Sequence record: NC_047979.1
Reading direction: 5' to 3' (one strand)
Length of the DNA stretch: 64,000 nt
From: Escherichia phage Gostya9
Positions 7,644-64,000 of the stretch are shown here, piece by piece; position 1 is the stretch's first letter, and each line of letters opens with the position of its first letter. The translations under genes were made by a program, and so were the position numbers. The notes below the pieces were generated by a model, which was given only the letters and a program-made list of their open reading frames with translations, was not told the origin of the DNA and did no database searches.

Positions 7644-8443
7644 GTGCAAATCCGACAATTGCTCCAAGGGTTACGCGTGGGCATGTATGTGCAAATCCGA
7701 CCCATTTTTTGGTAGTGTGCAAATCCGACCCTAAAAATTTATAAATTCGTGAGAGTGACGAATCTGTCTCCCAAAAACTCCAGCAATCACGAACTGCGTT
7801 CGAATCCTGTGGGGTATGTGCAAATCCGACACGGTTTTTCTAGGATTAAGATGTGCGAATCCGATGAAATTTTTGTGACTTCGATGAGAGGGTGTGTGAT
7901 TGTATAGGTTTGAGGAGAAGGTGAGAGAGCGGGAGAAATTTTGGGACTAGAAGGATGTGGGCGCAGGATTGGTGCGGAGCACCTGATTTGCGGGGGTTTT
8001 GGGGGATAGTTGAGGTAATTTGGGGAAATTTGAGATAGGTGCAGAAAAAGTAAAATTTTATTAGCTAAATGGGGCAAAATAGCTTGACGAGTGAAAATTC
8101 TTGTGGCTCTAAAAACTCAGGCAATCACGGGCCTTCGGCCCGAAATAATGCTGCCATTTTCAGGAGATTATATGTTCCTAAAAACTTAGGCGTTTGTGCA
8201 AATCCGACCATAAGTTTCTAGAAACACAATGTACAAAACCGACAGTAATTTCTGGGAATGTGTTTTCAAAAAATGTCTTCTAGAAATAACCGCCCTCCCT
8301 ATAACCGCCCTATATTAACCGCCTATGCTAGAGTTTCTAGGAACAATGAAAACTGCCCTAGAATTTGTGCAAATCCGATGAATATTTCTGTGTGATCTCT
8401 AGAATTTATACTTATCAATTTCCTAGAATATGTGCAAATCCGA
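7644..8443 (+). repeat. dispersed direct repeat family TGTGCAAATCCGA(C/T), at least 8 copies, same orientation
   Basis: copies near 7644, 7688, 7716, 7817, 7853 (variant), 8194, 8365 and 8430; frequently followed by a T-run; one extra copy inside CDS at about 10107. Confidence 0.8.
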
Positions 8444-8495
8444 TGAATATTTTTGTGTGATCTCTAGAATTTATGCTTATCAATTTCCTAGAAAC
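8358..8495. repeat. ~70-bp tandem duplication
   Basis: TGTGCAAATCCGATGAATATTT..TCTCTAGAATTTAT..CAATTTCCTAGAA present twice in tandem with 3 substitutions. Confidence 0.8.
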
Positions 8496-8891
8496 TTAGG
8501 AGTCTGCTAGAAAGTGTTGAGCCATCCTAGCAGATGAGCGGCAACCGGTGTATCATCTTGAACACAGATATTGCCTTTAAATTTTTTATCAGTTATTTTT
8601 AAATATAAGATCCCCCAAGGTTCTCATATAGAGCTTTGCCCCCGCCAGAAGGTCTCGTGATGTTTCTAGTAATCTTTATTAAATTACCTATTGACTTGTC
8701 CTGTCGCTCCGTAACCTACGCTACAAGTCAGTAATTTAAGATTCCTGAACCACCACACCTTCTGTGTGGCAACTCTAAATGGTTAATTCTATTAACTCAT
8801 AGAGTTATGATAACATACATTTAGCTATCTGTCAACGAGAGTTTGTATTATTGTCTCGGTACAGGTATTGTGCACCGAGACTTGCAGAGTA

Positions 8892-9776
8892 TTATAATAA
8901 TTCTTGGTATGCTTTTTGATACGCCTCAGTATCTGTAGGTGTACCTTTTGCTAACGCAATTAGTTCATCCGTTATCTGAATATTCGTATTATAACGTGTG
9001 TGGAACTCGTCAGGGATTTCTAGATATCTATTTATGAACGCTGCAGCAAGCGGTGAAGCTACACCCATTTCTAGAACCCATCCAACATGGTTTTCAAACT
9101 TCAGATAAGGGGAATCAGATGGGGTTGGTGGGGTTACATCAATTTTCTCTGGTTCTTTTTCTGGAAGCAATGGATTACTATATAATGCTTCATCTGGAAG
9201 CACAGATTTACGCTCTTTAAATATATAAGTTTCTAGATCAGATGCCTTAGATCCTGAGTACACAGCAAAAACGCTAGCTTTACCTTGTGATGCCCTAACT
9301 GGTAGATAACTAGTAGGATAGCTTCTTAATGCATCATGGAATGGACTTCCTGAATATTTGTACGTATCTCCATAGAGATCATCAATATTCATTCGTTCAT
9401 CTTCAAAAATGTGAAATGACTTAAATGGTGGAATGGTGAAGTACTCCATCTGTAATCCATAAACTAAGAAACGATGTGCATATGCACTGATTTTTAAGAC
9501 TGTGAATGCTTTTTCACCTTCTTTATGGGCATTGCCCTTTGAAGTAACTGGGTAACGTTTACAAAACATCTCTACTAGACGTTTCTCATTAATATTGAGT
9601 GAGGAATATAAACGTCCATTTAGCCCTATAAGTGCATCGAACATAAATGCTAGTTTATCTTTTTCTTCTTGGGTTAGTCCAGGAAACGGAAGTACTTTAG
9701 CATTAGGAACACTATTATTCTCTTTAGGTTTTGTTTTACCAGCATTTTGTCTTAGTTTATCTTTAAAGTTATACAT
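8892..9776 (-). CDS. hypothetical protein
   Basis: 294-aa ORF; GGGAG RBS upstream; no motif recognised. Confidence 0.55.
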   Translation of the reverse strand: MYNFKDKLRQNAGKTKPKENNSVPNAKVLPFPGLTQEEKDKLAFMFDALIGLNGRLYSSLNINEKRLVEMFCKRYPVTSKGNAHKEGEKAFTVLKISAYAHRFLVYGLQMEYFTIPPFKSFHIFEDERMNIDDLYGDTYKYSGSPFHDALRSYPTSYLPVRASQGKASVFAVYSGSKASDLETYIFKERKSVLPDEALYSNPLLPEKEPEKIDVTPPTPSDSPYLKFENHVGWVLEMGVASPLAAAFINRYLEIPDEFHTRYNTNIQITDELIALAKGTPTDTEAYQKAYQELL

Positions 9777-9793
9777 TATTATCTCCCATTTTT

Positions 9794-9828
9794 AAGGTCT
9801 GGATGACCTTCTTTTTATTTTAGAGCCT
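9794..9828 (+). terminator. rho-independent terminator-like hairpin oriented on plus strand
   Basis: AAGGTC-TGGAT-GACCTT followed by CTTTTTATTTT; a second hairpin GAGCCTC-CGTA-GAGGCTC lies at 9831-9849. Confidence 0.45.
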
Positions 9829-9853
9829 CCGTAGAGGCTCATGTATTAGAGGG

Positions 9854-10450
9854 TTAACTACCTCTCTTATCTTCATTAATAACAGCTCCTAGTGCCCCCA
9901 TAATTGCATCTTCTATACTTCCATGCTTACTAGGATTGCTTAAGTGAATAGTATATGAGTTCCTAGAAACTCCAGAGTCCACAGGCGCTACGCTTTTCAT
10001 ATCAGACTCAAAAGCTTCTTGAGTATGTTTCAATTGTGCAGAAGGTCCATAATCTTCCCCAAACTTATATGACTGTGTACTACTTACCGCACCCCCACAT
10101 GGAACATTGTGCAAATCCGATGGATTATTTAACAGTGCAATGCCACTTCTCGGCCACAGGTCACTAACATGGGTACTAGGACGGTTAACCTCAGTCTTCA
10201 CAAGTTTATAACCAGCATCGATCAGTGCATTAATAAGGTTATCAGCTGGAATGCGAGCCTTGCCGAAAATCTCACGAGCGTTGTTGAGCCTACCTTCAAA
10301 ACCTTTACATGCTCTAATATTAGTGTGTGCAAAGGTTAGCTTCATAGATTTGAATTGTACAGTAGCAGTTAAATCTTTAAAGCTATAATCCCACGTATTC
10401 AGTTCATGATCTGGTACTACTTGAATAGATTGTTGTGCATATAAAGTCAT
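9854..10450 (-). CDS. hypothetical protein
   Basis: 198-aa ORF; contains an internal copy of the TGTGCAAATCCGA motif. Confidence 0.55.
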   Translation of the reverse strand: MTLYAQQSIQVVPDHELNTWDYSFKDLTATVQFKSMKLTFAHTNIRACKGFEGRLNNAREIFGKARIPADNLINALIDAGYKLVKTEVNRPSTHVSDLWPRSGIALLNNPSDLHNVPCGGAVSSTQSYKFGEDYGPSAQLKHTQEAFESDMKSVAPVDSGVSRNSYTIHLSNPSKHGSIEDAIMGALGAVINEDKRGS

Positions 10451-10635
10451 TATTTATTCTCCAGTTTGTCTAACAGCTTATGAGCTGCTAGATTATATTG
10501 TTTAAGCTCACGGTTAAGGCTTTGGTTCTCACATTTTAACTCTAGATTCTCTTTATTAAGAAGATTGCAAATAAATAGAAGTGCTAGTATAACTAGCAGG
10601 GAACCTACAAGCATTAAAAGAAAAAGACTTTCCAT
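10450..10635 (-). CDS. small membrane-anchored coiled-coil protein
   Basis: 61-aa ORF; N-terminal hydrophobic segment then charged helix. Confidence 0.4.
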   Translation of the reverse strand: MESLFLLMLVGSLLVILALLFICNLLNKENLELKCENQSLNRELKQYNLAAHKLLDKLENK

Positions 10636-59351: not shown

Positions 59352-59386
59352 AGGGGTGGGGGCTATGCCTCTACCCCTTTTTGCAT
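59352..59386 (+). terminator. terminator-like hairpin
   Basis: AGGGGTG..CACCCCT-like stem followed by TTTTT; lies inside the ORF-track N-terminus of the next gene. Confidence 0.45.
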
Positions 59387-59415
59387 TTAGAAGGCACGAA
59401 AGCGTGCAAAGGAGA

Positions 59416-60888
59416 ATGACCTTGTTTAACGTGCAAGCTGTAGTGTTGAAGATGCTTCTAGCTTCCGAACAGAAGCAAATAGCATTGGAAACATTCTCAA
59501 AACTGCATAAAGATCATTTTAATGACGCTTTCTCCTCAATTTACCAAGCCGTCCAGAATTATTATAAAAAATATAACACAATGCCGTCCATTGACGCACT
59601 GATGCTTGAGGCTAATAGGAACGCCCGCCTTTCTCAAGCTCTAGTCGTTTTAGCTAACACTCAAATTCCAGAAGTTAGCATGGAACAGGCACTTGAAGTC
59701 CTAGAGGCCGAGTATACACAGGATTTATTCCTGAAGCTTCTAGAAACAGACGTGCTTCAAGATTTAACAATGCTGGATCAGGGAGAAATTCTTAACCGAG
59801 TTGCCTCCCTTCACTTAAAATTAGAAGAGAAAGTAACGAATACTGGAAAAGTATTCAACGCAGATAACATGCGTATTTTCCAGAGAGAAGAAGATACCAA
59901 ACTGAACTTAATCGCTCTTGGTATTTGTAATGAGTTCGACGCTCAAATTGGTTTAGCTCGCACAGAAACGTTACTGCTTGGTGGTTGGCGTGGTACTGGT
60001 AAATCCATTATCTGTTCAAACATACAGGTTCAGCAATATTTGAATGGAGATATTGCTCCATACTTCTCAATTGAGATGAAAGAACATGAAGTATTTAGAC
60101 GTAATCTAGCTATGTTAGCTGGTGTATCAGCACTAGCAATGCGTAATAATACTCTAGAAGGTGCAGCTCTGTTGAGATTAGCCAGAACTAGAGCTAGGAT
60201 GTTTAACGGTGGTGAAGAGCTTTTCGATAACTTCGTTAAACAGTACACAATGGCTAAGATGAGTGATTTCTACGATATGGAAAGTAAGCTAATAGAAGGA
60301 TATGAGCTACATACTCCTATGATTATTGTTTATGATCCTGAGCTGTCTATTACAACAGTTGACGTAGAATTAAATAAATTAGTTGCTAGATATGGGGATA
60401 AAGTTACAGTAGCTTTACTAGACTATATTAACCAAACCCGACTTCCAGACTCTAAAACCATTGATATGTATGACTGGAAAGAACAGATGGTTGTTAGCTC
60501 GTCTTTCAAATCTATCTGCCAGAAACATAACGTGGCTGGTGTAGCTCCTTACCAGATCGATCAAGATGGTAGAACACGTATGTCGAAGGGGATTCTTGAT
60601 TCCGCAGACATGGCTGCTAATCTTAATGCTGCAAAAGCTGATAATGGTCAAGGTGCTATTATGTTTGACTTCGTTAAGACTCGGTCTTCTGATAGCGTGA
60701 AGTTTATGCCTAAAATGAACTGGGAAACCCTGCGGATGGATAACACTACCAACCTAGCAATGGAAGATATATCTCAAATGGAAGCTGAGTTCGTTATCCC
60801 TATTGAGAAGGATAAGCCGACTCAATCTAAACGTGCTAAGAAAGACAAAGCTGAAAATTCAACAGGTGAACAGGCCAGCGATATATGA
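59416..60888 (+). CDS. DnaB-like replicative helicase
   Basis: ATG after AAGGAG RBS (490 aa); RecA-fold Walker A GWRGTGKS. Confidence 0.65.
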   Translation: MTLFNVQAVVLKMLLASEQKQIALETFSKLHKDHFNDAFSSIYQAVQNYYKKYNTMPSIDALMLEANRNARLSQALVVLANTQIPEVSMEQALEVLEAEYTQDLFLKLLETDVLQDLTMLDQGEILNRVASLHLKLEEKVTNTGKVFNADNMRIFQREEDTKLNLIALGICNEFDAQIGLARTETLLLGGWRGTGKSIICSNIQVQQYLNGDIAPYFSIEMKEHEVFRRNLAMLAGVSALAMRNNTLEGAALLRLARTRARMFNGGEELFDNFVKQYTMAKMSDFYDMESKLIEGYELHTPMIIVYDPELSITTVDVELNKLVARYGDKVTVALLDYINQTRLPDSKTIDMYDWKEQMVVSSSFKSICQKHNVAGVAPYQIDQDGRTRMSKGILDSADMAANLNAAKADNGQGAIMFDFVKTRSSDSVKFMPKMNWETLRMDNTTNLAMEDISQMEAEFVIPIEKDKPTQSKRAKKDKAENSTGEQASDI

Positions 60889-61418
60889 TAACACAGGAAA
60901 GGCTAAAAGAGTTATTTGATTACTCCCCAGTTTCTGGGGAGTTTACTAGAAAAGTATCTAGAGGTAATCAGAAAGCTGGTAGTATAATAACCAGAAAAGA
61001 CTCTAACGGTTATATAATTATTGGTATAGATGGCAAGGATTACAAAGCCCATCGGATGGCTTTTCTATTTATGGAAAATACATTGCCGGAAAAAGTAGAC
61101 CATGTAAACAGAATACCTTTTGATAATAGGTGGTGTAATCTAAGAGACGCCACAGCTCAGGAAAATAGTAGAAATAAAACCGCATGTAGTAAGTCTGGAT
61201 ATTTGGGAGTTGCTTGGGATATCGAAAAACAAAGATGGAGAGTTCAAGTAAGAGACTCTAATAGCACTCTTAAAAATGGTGGCAGATTTAAGTATGAAGA
61301 GCTAGAGCTAGCTGTAAATTCAGCAAATATATTAAGGACTAAGTTACATGGAGAACGTGCTGTTATAGAAATTTTTGATACATCTAATTATCCTTCACTG
61401 GAGGAGTTAAATTCATGA
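60885..61418 (+). CDS. HNH homing endonuclease (paralog 3 of 3)
   Basis: 177 aa; MITQERLKELFDY..GYIIIGIDGKDYKAHRMAF..VDHVNR..NRWCNLRDAT..ENSRNKT; overlaps both neighbours. Confidence 0.75.
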   Translation: MITQERLKELFDYSPVSGEFTRKVSRGNQKAGSIITRKDSNGYIIIGIDGKDYKAHRMAFLFMENTLPEKVDHVNRIPFDNRWCNLRDATAQENSRNKTACSKSGYLGVAWDIEKQRWRVQVRDSNSTLKNGGRFKYEELELAVNSANILRTKLHGERAVIEIFDTSNYPSLEELNS

Positions 61419-62305: not shown

Positions 62306-62367
62306 TATATTGGTAAGTTAGAGAAGAAACACTGAAGTTATACTTACTTACCAAGAGGAGATTAAAT

Positions 62368-64000
62368 TTGAAAATTGCAGTAGTTGATAAAGCTCTAAAC
62401 AACACTCGTTATGATAAACATTTCCAGCTATACGGCGAGGAAGTTGATGTATTCCATATGTGTAACGAGAAGTTATCCGGTCGTTTGCTCAAAAAGCATA
62501 TTACTATCGGGACCCCGGAAAACCCATTTGACCCGAATGATTATGATTTTGTTATACTGGTAGGTGCCGAACCTTTCCTGTACTTTGCGGGTAAGAAAGG
62601 TATTGGTGATTATACTGGTAAACGTGTAGAGTATAATGGATATGCTAACTGGATTGCTAGTATCAGCCCAGCCCAGTTACACTTTAAACCTGAAATGAAA
62701 CCAGTTTTTGATGCAACAGTAGAGAGTATCCACGATATTATCAATGGTCGTGAGAAGATTGCAAAAGCTGGTGATTACCGTCCTATTACTGACCCTGATG
62801 AGGCAGAAGAATATATCAAGATGGTGTATAATATGGTTATCGGACCTGTCGCATTCGACTCCGAAACCTCAGCACTATACTGTCGAGATGGTTATCTGCT
62901 TGGTGTTTCTATTTCTCACCAAGAGTATCAGGGTGTATATATCGATTCTGATTGTCTCACAGAGGTTGCAGTATATTATCTCCAGAAAATTCTGGATAGT
63001 GAAAACCACATTATTGTTTTTCACAACTTGAAGTTTGATATGCACTTTTATAAGTACCATCTGGGACTTACTTTTGATAAAGCACATAAAGAACGCAGGC
63101 TCCATGATACCATGTTGCAGCACTATGTTCTAGATGAACGTCGTGGTACTCATGGCTTGAAATCTCTAGCAATGAAGTATACCGATATGGGTGACTATGA
63201 CTTCGAACTAGATAAGTTCAAAGATGATTACTGCAAAGCACATAAAATCAAGAAAGAAGATTTCACCTATGATCTGATTCCGTTTGATATTATGTGGCCA
63301 TATGCATGTCTTACTCACGATTCCCAAGTTCGGATGGCTTCAGGGAATTGGAAGACTATTGGGGAACTTGTTCGCACCAAATCTACAGAAGCTGTAGTAT
63401 CATTCAACGAGTCAACTGGGCAATTTGAGAACAAACCGATTACTGGATGGTATAAAAATGAACATAAATCCAAGCAATGGAAGAAGTTAATAGTTAAATC
63501 TCAGCAAAGAAACTCTAAGGGTACTATTAATGGGCCAGTATTTACACCAGATCATAGGGTATTAACTCAGAATGGATACATAGAAGTCCAAGATATTATT
63601 CCAGGACAGGATAAAATCCTAACTGAAGAACTTGCTTTACCATCTGATAGTAAGCAAGTATTAATGGCATCCCTATTTGGGGATGGTGCTCTGGTATCTA
63701 GAAATAATTGGGGCGCGGGTCTACAACTGACACAGTCAGAAGCGCATAAAGAGTATCTAGATTTTAAGGCAGCCTCTCAAGTAGAAACACCAACTCTTAG
63801 TTCCTCTACAAAAGGAGATAAAAAAGCATATACGTATAGTTTCCCCTATACCTCGGAGTATTCTGACTTATTCTCTACCTTAGAGGTACGAGATAATACT
63901 ACAAAATATAAGTTAAAAATTACTAAGAAAAATCTAGAAGGGTTAGATGAAAAAGCACTAGCTATTTGGTATCAAGATGATGGTAACCTGCCACAAGGAA
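62368..64000 (+). CDS. DNA polymerase (family A), N-terminal part, interrupted by an intein; partial
   Basis: TTG start after AAGAGGAG RBS; Exo I FDSETSALY and Exo II HNLKFDMHFY present; reading frame continues into the intein at 63307. Confidence 0.8.
   Translation, partial: MKIAVVDKALNNTRYDKHFQLYGEEVDVFHMCNEKLSGRLLKKHITIGTPENPFDPNDYDFVILVGAEPFLYFAGKKGIGDYTGKRVEYNGYANWIASISPAQLHFKPEMKPVFDATVESIHDIINGREKIAKAGDYRPITDPDEAEEYIKMVYNMVIGPVAFDSETSALYCRDGYLLGVSISHQEYQGVYIDSDCLTEVAVYYLQKILDSENHIIVFHNLKFDMHFYKYHLGLTFDKAHKERRLHDTMLQHYVLDERRGTHGLKSLAMKYTDMGDYDFELDKFKDDYCKAHKIKKEDFTYDLIPFDIMWPYACLTHDSQVRMASGNWKTIGELVRTKSTEAVVSFNESTGQFENKPITGWYKNEHKSKQWKKLIVKSQQRNSKGTINGPVFTPDHRVLTQNGYIEVQDIIPGQDKILTEELALPSDSKQVLMASLFGDGALVSRNNWGAGLQLTQSEAHKEYLDFKAASQVETPTLSSSTKGDKKAYTYSFPYTSEYSDLFSTLEVRDNTTKYKLKITKKNLEGLDEKALAIWYQDDGNLPQG
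63307..64000 (+). mobile_element. intein with LAGLIDADG homing-endonuclease domain inside DNA polymerase (partial, N-terminal part)
   Basis: begins with Cys after extein ..IMWPYA; Block A CLTHDSQV, Block B TPDHRVLT; endonuclease motifs LMASLFGDGAL and LAIWYQDDGNL. Confidence 0.7.

Follow-up and report, generated by a model that had tools for sequence, protein, structure and literature searches.

The stretch of DNA analysed here, hereafter the window, comprises 64,000 nucleotides from Escherichia phage Gostya9 (NC_047979.1), a T5-like phage (Tequintavirus) whose backbone is closest to those of DT57C and DT571/2. The window ends within a family-A DNA polymerase gene that starts with a TTG codon at 62368, as does the annotated polymerase gene of phage smaug, and is preceded by a Shine-Dalgarno-like sequence. 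The uninterrupted polymerase frame claimed in an initial annotation of this DNA is indeed present: it runs from the TTG to base 64000, the window end, without a stop codon, and reads ...DLIPFDIMWPYA/CLTHDSQVRMASG... TPDHRVLT ... LFGDGAL ... IWYQDDGNL. The first 313 codons (the N-extein) share 98.3% nucleotide identity with the T5 polymerase gene, are identical to T5 in the alignment as far as A313, and encode the T5-specific N-terminal region together with most of the 3'-5' exonuclease domain, ending with W-P-Y-A in Exo III. On these 313 amino acids the exonuclease profile PF01612 (DNA_pol_A_exo1) scores 114.5 bits over residues 137-313, covering only profile positions 1-154 of 173, and PF00476 (DNA_pol_A) is present in the C-extein of the homologues, a part beyond the window end. 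Judged by these matches, the host protein is a T5-type family-A DNA polymerase with 3'-5' exonuclease. Elsewhere in the window the phage has an additional HNH gene between helicase and primase, and a free-standing endonuclease gene lies at 60885-61418, 2 kb upstream.

At 63307 begins an insert that is absent from T5, of which the window covers the first 231 codons (694 bases). Intein blocks A and B and two LAGLIDADG motifs, all read in the initial annotation, lie at the positions given in Table 1, and both motifs carry an acidic residue (D126 and D225) ahead of the final Gly. A search with intein profiles, one of the checks that the annotation had proposed, gave matches above the curated cutoffs on the window sequence itself: over the 231 amino acids from 63307, TIGR01445 (intein_Nterm) scores 30.6 bits (E 4.9e-07; cutoff 24.5 bits) and PF03161 (LAGLIDADG_2) scores 37.3 bits (E 3.3e-09; cutoff 25 bits). 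The window stops 5 residues past motif 2, and the remainder of the endonuclease domain (about residues 232-300) is intact in the homologues. No further inteins were found in the window, either by the family HMM described below or by Pfam in the large open reading frames.

Table 1. Features of the polymerase gene and of its putative intein, in window coordinates
Feature	Position	Strand	Basis or detail
Shine-Dalgarno-like AAGAGGAG	62353..62360	+	7 nt 5' of the polymerase TTG; sequence reading
N-extein, DNA polymerase residues 1-313	62368..63306	+	Open frame; T5 alignment; PF01612
N-terminal splice junction, GCA (Ala313, -1) / TGT (intein Cys1, first nucleophile)	63304..63309	+	-1 codon 63304-63306, Cys1 codon 63307-63309; MZ501103 annotated start, family alignment
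Intein N-terminal splicing (HINT) half	63307..63654	+	TIGR01445, family alignment, profile matches
Block A, CLTHDSQV	63307-63330	+	Sequence reading
Block B, TPDH (T80-P-D-H83)	63544-63555	+	Sequence reading; T80 and H83 invariant in family
I-SceI-type LAGLIDADG homing endonuclease domain, cut by window end	63655..64000	+	PF03161, profile matches
LAGLIDADG motif 1, LMASLFGDG	63661-63687	+	Asp126 codon 63682-63684
LAGLIDADG motif 2, LAIWYQDDG	63958-63984	+	Asp225 codon 63979-63981

Splice junctions and the empty insertion site

The C-terminal junction of the window's own intein lies past base 64000 and was read only in four homologues, the full-length carriers SelmaRatti, smaug, Kenya-K44 and Kenya-K36, whose inserts are 96-97% identical in DNA to that of the window. 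In all four the insert is 359 amino acids long and ends ...DNHNFVTKVGVVHN, followed by Cys, K-D-T-D-A-T and the remaining polymerase. The C-terminal splice junction that the initial annotation expected downstream, HN followed by Ser, Thr or Cys and then polymerase sequence, is therefore found in these carriers as VGVVHN/C-KDTDAT (4/4), with the polymerase frame unbroken and the 359-codon intein intact. A divergent polymerase, P0001, has the same site and the same junction around an intein that is 43% identical. For the intein studied here, TIGR01443 (intein_Cterm) reaches 13.2 bits, under its cutoff of 15.6, and PF14890 reaches 23.5 bits, under its cutoff of 35.8, which five scanned relatives pass, so that the C-terminal end is called from its motifs, from the family alignment and from comparison with empty sites. 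The intein was already known, as GenBank record MZ501103 (phage SelmaRatti) independently annotates it with identical boundaries.

The insertion falls in Exo III, whose Y-x-x-x-D motif in T5 is Y312-A313-A314-K315-D316, with the insert between A313 and residue 314. T5 itself reads WPYA-AKDTDAT, gapless over the site, and so has no intein, as the initial annotation had suspected, and all 36 intein-free sites in IMG/VR likewise close gaplessly at the insertion point. Comparison with intein-free polymerases thus finds the segment missing from T5 and from the 36 further sites, and the insert is not native polymerase sequence. When the insert is removed in silico, the coverage of the Pfam exonuclease profile rises from positions 1-154 to positions 1-172 of 173, with a score of 134.5 bits (137.2 bits for T5).

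The initial annotation had also placed a YA/C junction in Exo III. Its position stands, but the residue after the intein is not the native one: in the intein-free T5-like polymerases (n=36) the +1 position is Ala in 34, Ser in two and Cys in none, whereas it is Cys in the four full-length carriers (codon TGT, 4/4) and in P0001. Given this difference, each invasion must co-convert that codon. The intein would thereby supply its own downstream nucleophile, and the spliced polymerase would be expected to retain an Ala314-to-Cys scar in Exo III (Y-A-C-K-D). On the other side of the insert, the third base of the -1 codon is A in 5/5 carriers and T in the 4/4 intein-free relatives compared. An empty site with Cys at +1, the footprint that loss of the intein would leave, was sought with 0 matches, the positive control returning 36 sites. 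GCA at -1 was rejected as another such footprint, since the two empty sites that have it differ from the two with Ser at +1, and a long co-conversion tract common to the carriers was rejected likewise, since only position -1 segregates with the intein.

Family profile, distribution and movement

A family alignment and profile were built from 12 intein family members. C1, T80, H83, D126, D224 and N359 are invariant in this alignment, Cys1 thus included, and D225, N347, H348 and H358 are nearly so; in the endonuclease motifs, G125-D126-G127 and A219...G226 are invariant or close to it. Profile positions 1-104 resemble the solved mini-inteins Spl DnaX, NrdJ-1, Mtu RecA and Ssp DnaB (E 1e-16 to 1e-11), and by sequence profile the outer parts match solved HINT domains in two stretches, which points to a HINT fold. 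For positions 107-306 the matches are I-SceI and an intron endonuclease related to it (E 1e-22 to 1e-24), with the second Asp of the window's motif 2 aligned to the second Asp of the I-SceI MDDG motif, the catalytic D145. These structural matches required the family profile; the full intein, searched as a single sequence against PDB chains, gave none. A search of a large protein database returned only two relatives, the near-identical carriers not being among them, and IMG/VR holds no close copy of the intein, the best being 31% identical.

Among 442 records of T5-like phages the intein is present in six and absent in 436, and the carriers belong to two annotated genera, Tequintavirus and Epseptimavirus. 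Backbones with identical neighbouring proteins (exact matches of D5 and HNH) have an intein-free polymerase of 855 amino acids. When smaug is compared with the other carriers, identity is 97-98% in the intein and 86-90% in the exteins (Fisher p 3e-20 to 8e-25), with a step in identity at both intein boundaries. An intein about 97% identical between genera, within flanks 87-90% identical, indicates that the intein moved horizontally between the two genera. Among the Tequintavirus carriers the intein of the window is no more conserved than the N-extein (p 0.09-0.9), and the mobility signal therefore resides in the between-genus comparison.

Predicted splicing and homing, and alternative readings

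The insert is very probably a canonical class-1 intein, situated in Exo III of a T5-type family-A polymerase and 359 amino acids long in full-length homologues, in which an in-frame, two-motif LAGLIDADG homing endonuclease of the I-SceI type divides the HINT splicing domain in two. Following established intein chemistry, the polymerase would be made as a precursor of about 1214 amino acids in which an N-S acyl shift takes place at Cys1, a branched intermediate forms when the +1 Cys attacks the thioester, Asn359 cyclises with the assistance of His358 and releases the intein, and an S-N shift ligates ...WPYA to CKDTDAT..., by which the exonuclease domain would be restored. The spliced polymerase would be expected to contain the peptide ...IMWPYACKDTDATIR..., and the C-terminal DNA junction of the window phage is predicted to read ...GTTCACAAC/TGTAAAGATAC. 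As known from homing biology, where related phages infect the same cell the endonuclease of the released intein would cut the partner's intein-free polymerase allele at ...TGGCCNTAYGCT/GCNAAAGAYAC..., the candidate cleavage target in the T5 polymerase gene being ...TGGCCATATGCT/GCGAAAGATACGG..., and repair off the intein-bearing allele would copy the intein along with the junction codons GCA ... TGT. A literature search found no published test of splicing or endonuclease activity for this intein. That the scar or the timing of splicing alters proofreading, or makes maturation of the polymerase conditional, for example on the redox state, is a long shot; if true, the role of the intein would go beyond that of a neutral parasite.

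A genuine splicing intein whose endonuclease is dead, persisting by vertical descent and ordinary phage recombination at a late stage of the homing cycle, is a possible, if rather unlikely, reading of the same data. The intein is rare, as its six occurrences show; its copies are 2-4% apart, with non-synonymous and synonymous codon changes in roughly equal number; within Tequintavirus it is no better conserved than the N-extein; and in SelmaRatti the motif-2 Asp225 is replaced by Ala, so that in some copies the endonuclease may be disabled. However, D126 and D225 are both retained in the window, in smaug and in the two Kenya phages, every endonuclease domain among the full-length carriers is complete and free of stops, and motif 2 is nearly invariant even among relatives just 23-31% identical. 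The sharp between-genus step at both boundaries, moreover, demands a precise transfer, and the sole flank base common to all carriers is that at position -1. Another proposal, in which the polymerase or its intein has decayed or been truncated past base 64000 in the window phage and is now a pseudogene, draws on the location of the last 128 intein codons and the whole C-extein beyond the window. It is very improbable: in the T5 record the polymerase is annotated as the replicative enzyme of the phage, the full-length carriers are intact (4/4), and the 231 intein codons in the window contain neither stop nor frameshift and keep all conserved residues.

Two further readings dispense with protein splicing. 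The continuity of the frame, and the fact that splicing is predicted here from sequence, would fit a lineage-specific insertion domain of the polymerase, retained in the mature enzyme and never spliced. Yet such a domain would break the catalytic Y-x-x-x-D motif of Exo III; Cys1, the TxxH of block B, the terminal HN and the +1 Cys are all present and invariant or nearly invariant across distant relatives in unrelated host proteins, the outer parts of the segment resemble solved inteins, and 436 of the 442 related polymerase records lack it, which together make this reading extremely improbable. The other reading is that the insert is in frame with the polymerase merely by chance, being either a group I intron or the gene of a free-standing homing endonuclease. 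Free-standing endonuclease genes are abundant in T5-like phages, the one at 60885-61418 being an example, but stop codons and start signals are missing from both boundaries of the insert, the endonuclease lies between HINT splicing blocks, and the boundaries fall exactly between codons, so that this origin is next to inconceivable. A group I intron was also sought directly, and Rfam gave no match at the insert.

The chief value of the probable intein analysed here lies in annotation. In most carriers the 1214-aa product is named simply 'DNA polymerase', and where the intein goes unrecognised, gene callers and domain tools report a broken exonuclease domain. The window adds one more allele, in another T5-like backbone, of a rare intein that has passed between Tequintavirus and Epseptimavirus. 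Being easily grown and crossed, T5 and related phages could offer a convenient system for measuring intein homing in lytic phages and for gauging how costly a non-native +1 residue is within a catalytic motif. Current views of inteins and of T5 replication are unchanged.

Comparison with known systems

The closest known system is the polymerase intein of SelmaRatti (Bas34; MZ501103) from the BASEL collection (PMC8594841), which interrupts the same gene at the same point (corresponding to 63307 in the window) and shares the junction codons, GCA/TGT...AAC/TGT. Its length is 359 amino acids, and over the 694 intein bases of the window its DNA is 95.8% identical. The two differ in that the window has another backbone, nearer to DT57C and DT571/2 and with the extra HNH gene between helicase and primase, and keeps the motif-2 Asp that SelmaRatti has lost (D225A). 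The SelmaRatti intein is known solely as a database annotation, the accompanying paper referring to inteins nowhere but in the methods and in S5 Table, where they are counted (PMC8594841), and the literature searched contained no description of an intein in a T5-type phage polymerase. Other polymerases of replication or repair also carry inteins in their conserved motifs: Novikova et al. (2016; PMC4760082) list DNA polymerase I among intein hosts, and one of the PolB insertion points lies within the 3'-5' exonuclease domain. These archaeal family-B and bacterial DNA polymerase I inteins differ from the present one in polymerase family or in organism, and PI-PkoII, the only PolB-named intein among the profile matches, is a weak match in the HINT part (E 3.8e-05).

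In its splicing domain the family resembles the class-1 HINT inteins Mtu RecA (PI-MtuI), Ssp DnaB, Spl DnaX and NrdJ-1, both in the N-terminal and in the C-terminal profile stretches (E 1e-16 to 1e-11) and in the class-1 traits of Cys1, TxxH in block B, and HN at the end of the intein with Cys or Ser as the next residue. The solved inteins reside in other host proteins at other insertion sites, and those matched are short chains of 137-168 residues, several of them named mini-inteins. In its central 200 residues the family aligns end to end with I-SceI, and it also resembles related intron-encoded monomeric LAGLIDADG endonucleases (PDB 1R7M, 3OOR, 6X1J); both LAGLIDADG motifs align, including the acidic residue ahead of each Gly. 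I-SceI, however, is a free protein from a mitochondrial group I intron, whereas the domain in the window is in frame inside a protein-splicing domain, and its target would have to differ from that of I-SceI, being here presumably the coding sequence of the polymerase Exo III motif. The same combination of Intein_splicing and LAGLIDADG_2 domains occurs in phage inteins of other host proteins (IMG/VR loci L004-L041 and P0002), which are 23-31% identical over the whole intein, share the same block residues and have a nearly identical LAIWYQDDG motif 2, but these interrupt UDG, RNA ligase, RecA, a UvrD-like helicase, adenylosuccinate synthetase and PhoH rather than a polymerase.

An intein in the exonuclease domain of the DNA polymerase

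The final 1.6 kb of the window is a single open frame, running without a stop from TTG 62368 to base 64000. Its first 313 codons, the N-extein (the polymerase part before the intein), share 98.3% DNA identity with the T5 polymerase gene and the phage is a Tequintavirus with DT57C and DT571/2 as its closest relatives; the alignments to both end at query 23300 (window 63299), a few bases short of the junction. From 63307 the frame reads CLTHDSQVRMASG..., then TPDHRVLT, LMASLFGDGAL and LAIWYQDDGNL, i.e., the polymerase runs into intein block A, TPDHRVLT and two LAGLIDADG motifs exactly as the initial annotation had described. The 231 in-window residues of the insert score 30.6 bits against TIGR01445 (intein N-terminal splicing region; curated cutoff 24.5) and 37.3 bits against PF03161 (LAGLIDADG_2; curated cutoff 25), and since both curated thresholds are passed, the observation is confirmed and chance resemblance excluded. 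No intron and no other RNA family was found in an Rfam scan of the region.

Features of the polymerase region
Feature	Coordinates	Strand	Remarks
DnaB-like helicase ORF	59356-60888	+	mechanical ORF start GTG 59356, 510 aa
HNH_3 endonuclease gene, free-standing	60885-61418	+	177 aa (PF13392); between DnaB-like helicase and primase
AAGAGGAG	62353-62360		ahead of polymerase TTG 62368
N-extein, T5-type family-A DNA polymerase N-terminal part	62368-63306		codons 1-313

The intein-free T5 polymerase aligns across the site with nothing between the flanks (...DIMWPYA-AKDTDATIRLH...), and the segment is therefore an insertion. It lies, as the initial annotation had placed it, in the Exo III Y-x-x-x-D motif of the exonuclease domain (T5: Y312-A313-A314-K315-D316), between residues 313 and 314. 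The window N-extein alone matches only positions 1-154 of 173 of the Pfam profile DNA_pol_A_exo1 (PF01612; 114.5 bits); an in-silico spliced product, composed of the window N-extein and the C-extein (the part after the intein) of homologues, matches positions 1-172 (134.5 bits), as does T5 polymerase (137.2 bits). Joining the exteins in silico thus restores the exonuclease domain.

The same 694 bases occur at 95.8-97.1% identity in six phage records (Salmonella phage smaug, in two records, Kenya-K44, Kenya-K36, Kenya-K42 and Escherichia phage SelmaRatti). The insert of the four full-length carriers, SelmaRatti, smaug, Kenya-K44 and Kenya-K36, is exactly 1077 nt (359 aa), stop-free, and ends in ...SWCIDVKDNHNFVTKVGVVHN, followed by Cys-Lys-Asp-Thr-Asp-Ala-Thr and the remaining polymerase; the anticipated C-terminal splice junction, which falls past the window end, is present in all four. 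The same junction (...VGVVHN/CRDTDAT) is found in a truncated metagenomic protein, P0001, with a 43% identical intein and a more divergent polymerase. The first reading of the insert as an intein is correct.

The +1 codon is TGT (Cys) in 4/4 full-length carriers, with Cys in P0001 too, and the residue at 36 intein-free IMG/VR sites is Ala in 34, Ser in two and Cys in none (T5 codon: GCG). The intein therefore carries its own downstream nucleophile along, and the predicted spliced enzyme would have Ala314Cys within Exo III. The two Ser sites (AGT; PYA/SKDTDATLRIF) belong to the T5-like contigs L047 and L066, in which a natural nucleophile thus occupies the carriers' Cys position in a divergent lineage. 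By analogy with established class-1 intein chemistry, splicing would proceed through an N-S acyl shift at Cys1, trans-thioesterification moving the acyl group to the +1 Cys, His358-assisted cyclisation of Asn359, which would free the intein, and formation of the extein-extein peptide bond via an S-N shift.

The intein family and its endonuclease

A family alignment combined the carriers with nine distant relatives (22-31% identical), eight on viral contigs and one in a protein database. Every member begins with Cys and ends with Asn, the next residue being Ser or Cys; this Asn is preceded by His in all except contig L021 (...VEN). Invariant positions are C1 (block A), T80 and H83 (block B), G125-D126-G127 (LAGLIDADG motif 1), A219-I220-W221, D224 and G226 (motif 2) and N359 (block G); Y222, Q223 and D225 (motif 2), N347 and H348 (block F) and H358 (block G) are conserved in at least 90%. 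Against solved structures the family profile splits cleanly, positions 1-104 and 328-367 matching HINT splicing domains (Spl DnaX, NrdJ-1, Mtu RecA, Ssp DnaB; E 1e-16 to 1e-11) and positions 107-306 I-SceI-type monomeric LAGLIDADG endonucleases (E 1e-22 to 1e-24). The relatives (IMG/VR contigs L004-L041 and protein P0002; 23-31% identical) share a nearly identical LAIWYQDDG motif and form one intein/LAGLIDADG_2 lineage dispersed over many phage host proteins. Their hosts are phage UDG, RNA ligase, RecA, UvrD-like helicase, adenylosuccinate synthetase and PhoH.

The acidic residues D126 and D225 are both retained in the window. Residue 225 aligns with the second Asp of the I-SceI MDDG, the catalytic D145. 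The SelmaRatti intein (L001 5001-6077) carries D225A in motif 2 (IWYQDAG), against Asp in 11/11 other aligned members; the window copy therefore looks competent and that of SelmaRatti may be inactive. In homing, an active endonuclease would cut the empty allele during co-infection, with repair from the intein-bearing copy.

Distribution and evidence of transfer between genera

Of the phage records, 442 contain the N-extein DNA but only 6 the intein, the carriers being annotated to two genera, Tequintavirus and Epseptimavirus. In phages whose D5 or HNH protein is identical to that of the window, the polymerase is 855 aa long and lacks the intein.

Nucleotide identity between carriers (Fisher p, intein vs exteins; for window vs smaug, intein vs N-extein only)
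Pair	Primase	N-extein	Intein	C-extein	Fisher p
SelmaRatti vs smaug	91.8%	88.0%	97.5%	89.6%	3.3e-20
smaug vs Kenya-K44	91.6%	86.9%	97.7%	89.3%	2e-23
smaug vs Kenya-K36	89.8%	86.5%	97.7%	88.8%	8e-25
window vs smaug	89.6%	87.5%	97.1% (first 694 nt)		4.4e-13

Sliding-window identity jumps at the N-terminal edge of the intein and drops at its C-terminal edge, and carrier flanks track their own lineage up to the junction. Over the final 240 N-extein bases, the sole position segregating with the intein is -1 (A in 5/5 carriers, T in 4/4 compared intein-free relatives). Within Tequintavirus the window intein is no more conserved than its N-extein, so the transfer signal, which is clear, comes from the comparison between genera.

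Neighbouring genes and prior record

The HNH_3 gene overlaps its neighbour by 4 bases at each end and sits where T5 has hegJ. It is missing from DT57C, DT571/2, SelmaRatti, smaug and Kenya-K44/K36, and is therefore a further variable mobile element in addition to the intein, which lies 2 kb downstream of it; a Logan contig (L083) encodes an identical HNH_3 protein and a polymerase without the intein. As annotated DnaB-like helicase homologues are 507 aa long, the helicase probably starts not at the GTG but at the ATG three codons further on. Downstream of the Kenya-K44 polymerase (L078 8193-10561), the annotation divides a D10-type helicase into 8193-8531 and 9539-10561; between these parts lies a 238-aa ORF without Pfam match, where identity to the other phages falls to ~57%. 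This is probably another mobile insertion.

In the SelmaRatti record of the BASEL collection (GenBank MZ501103), the polymerase is annotated as an 'intein-containing DNA polymerase precursor'; the mat_peptide feature for its intein is 1077 nt long and starts exactly at the equivalent of window 63307. According to the BASEL paper, inteins were identified precisely through comparative genomics, and it gives three for SelmaRatti (PMC8594841). Inteins have also been recorded for bacterial DNA polymerase I and within the exonuclease domain of a polymerase (PMC4760082). The finding is therefore already known, as database annotation, and the window contributes one further allele in a different backbone. 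The family to which the polymerase intein belongs is ordinary for phage inteins and shows the classic architecture that surveys describe.
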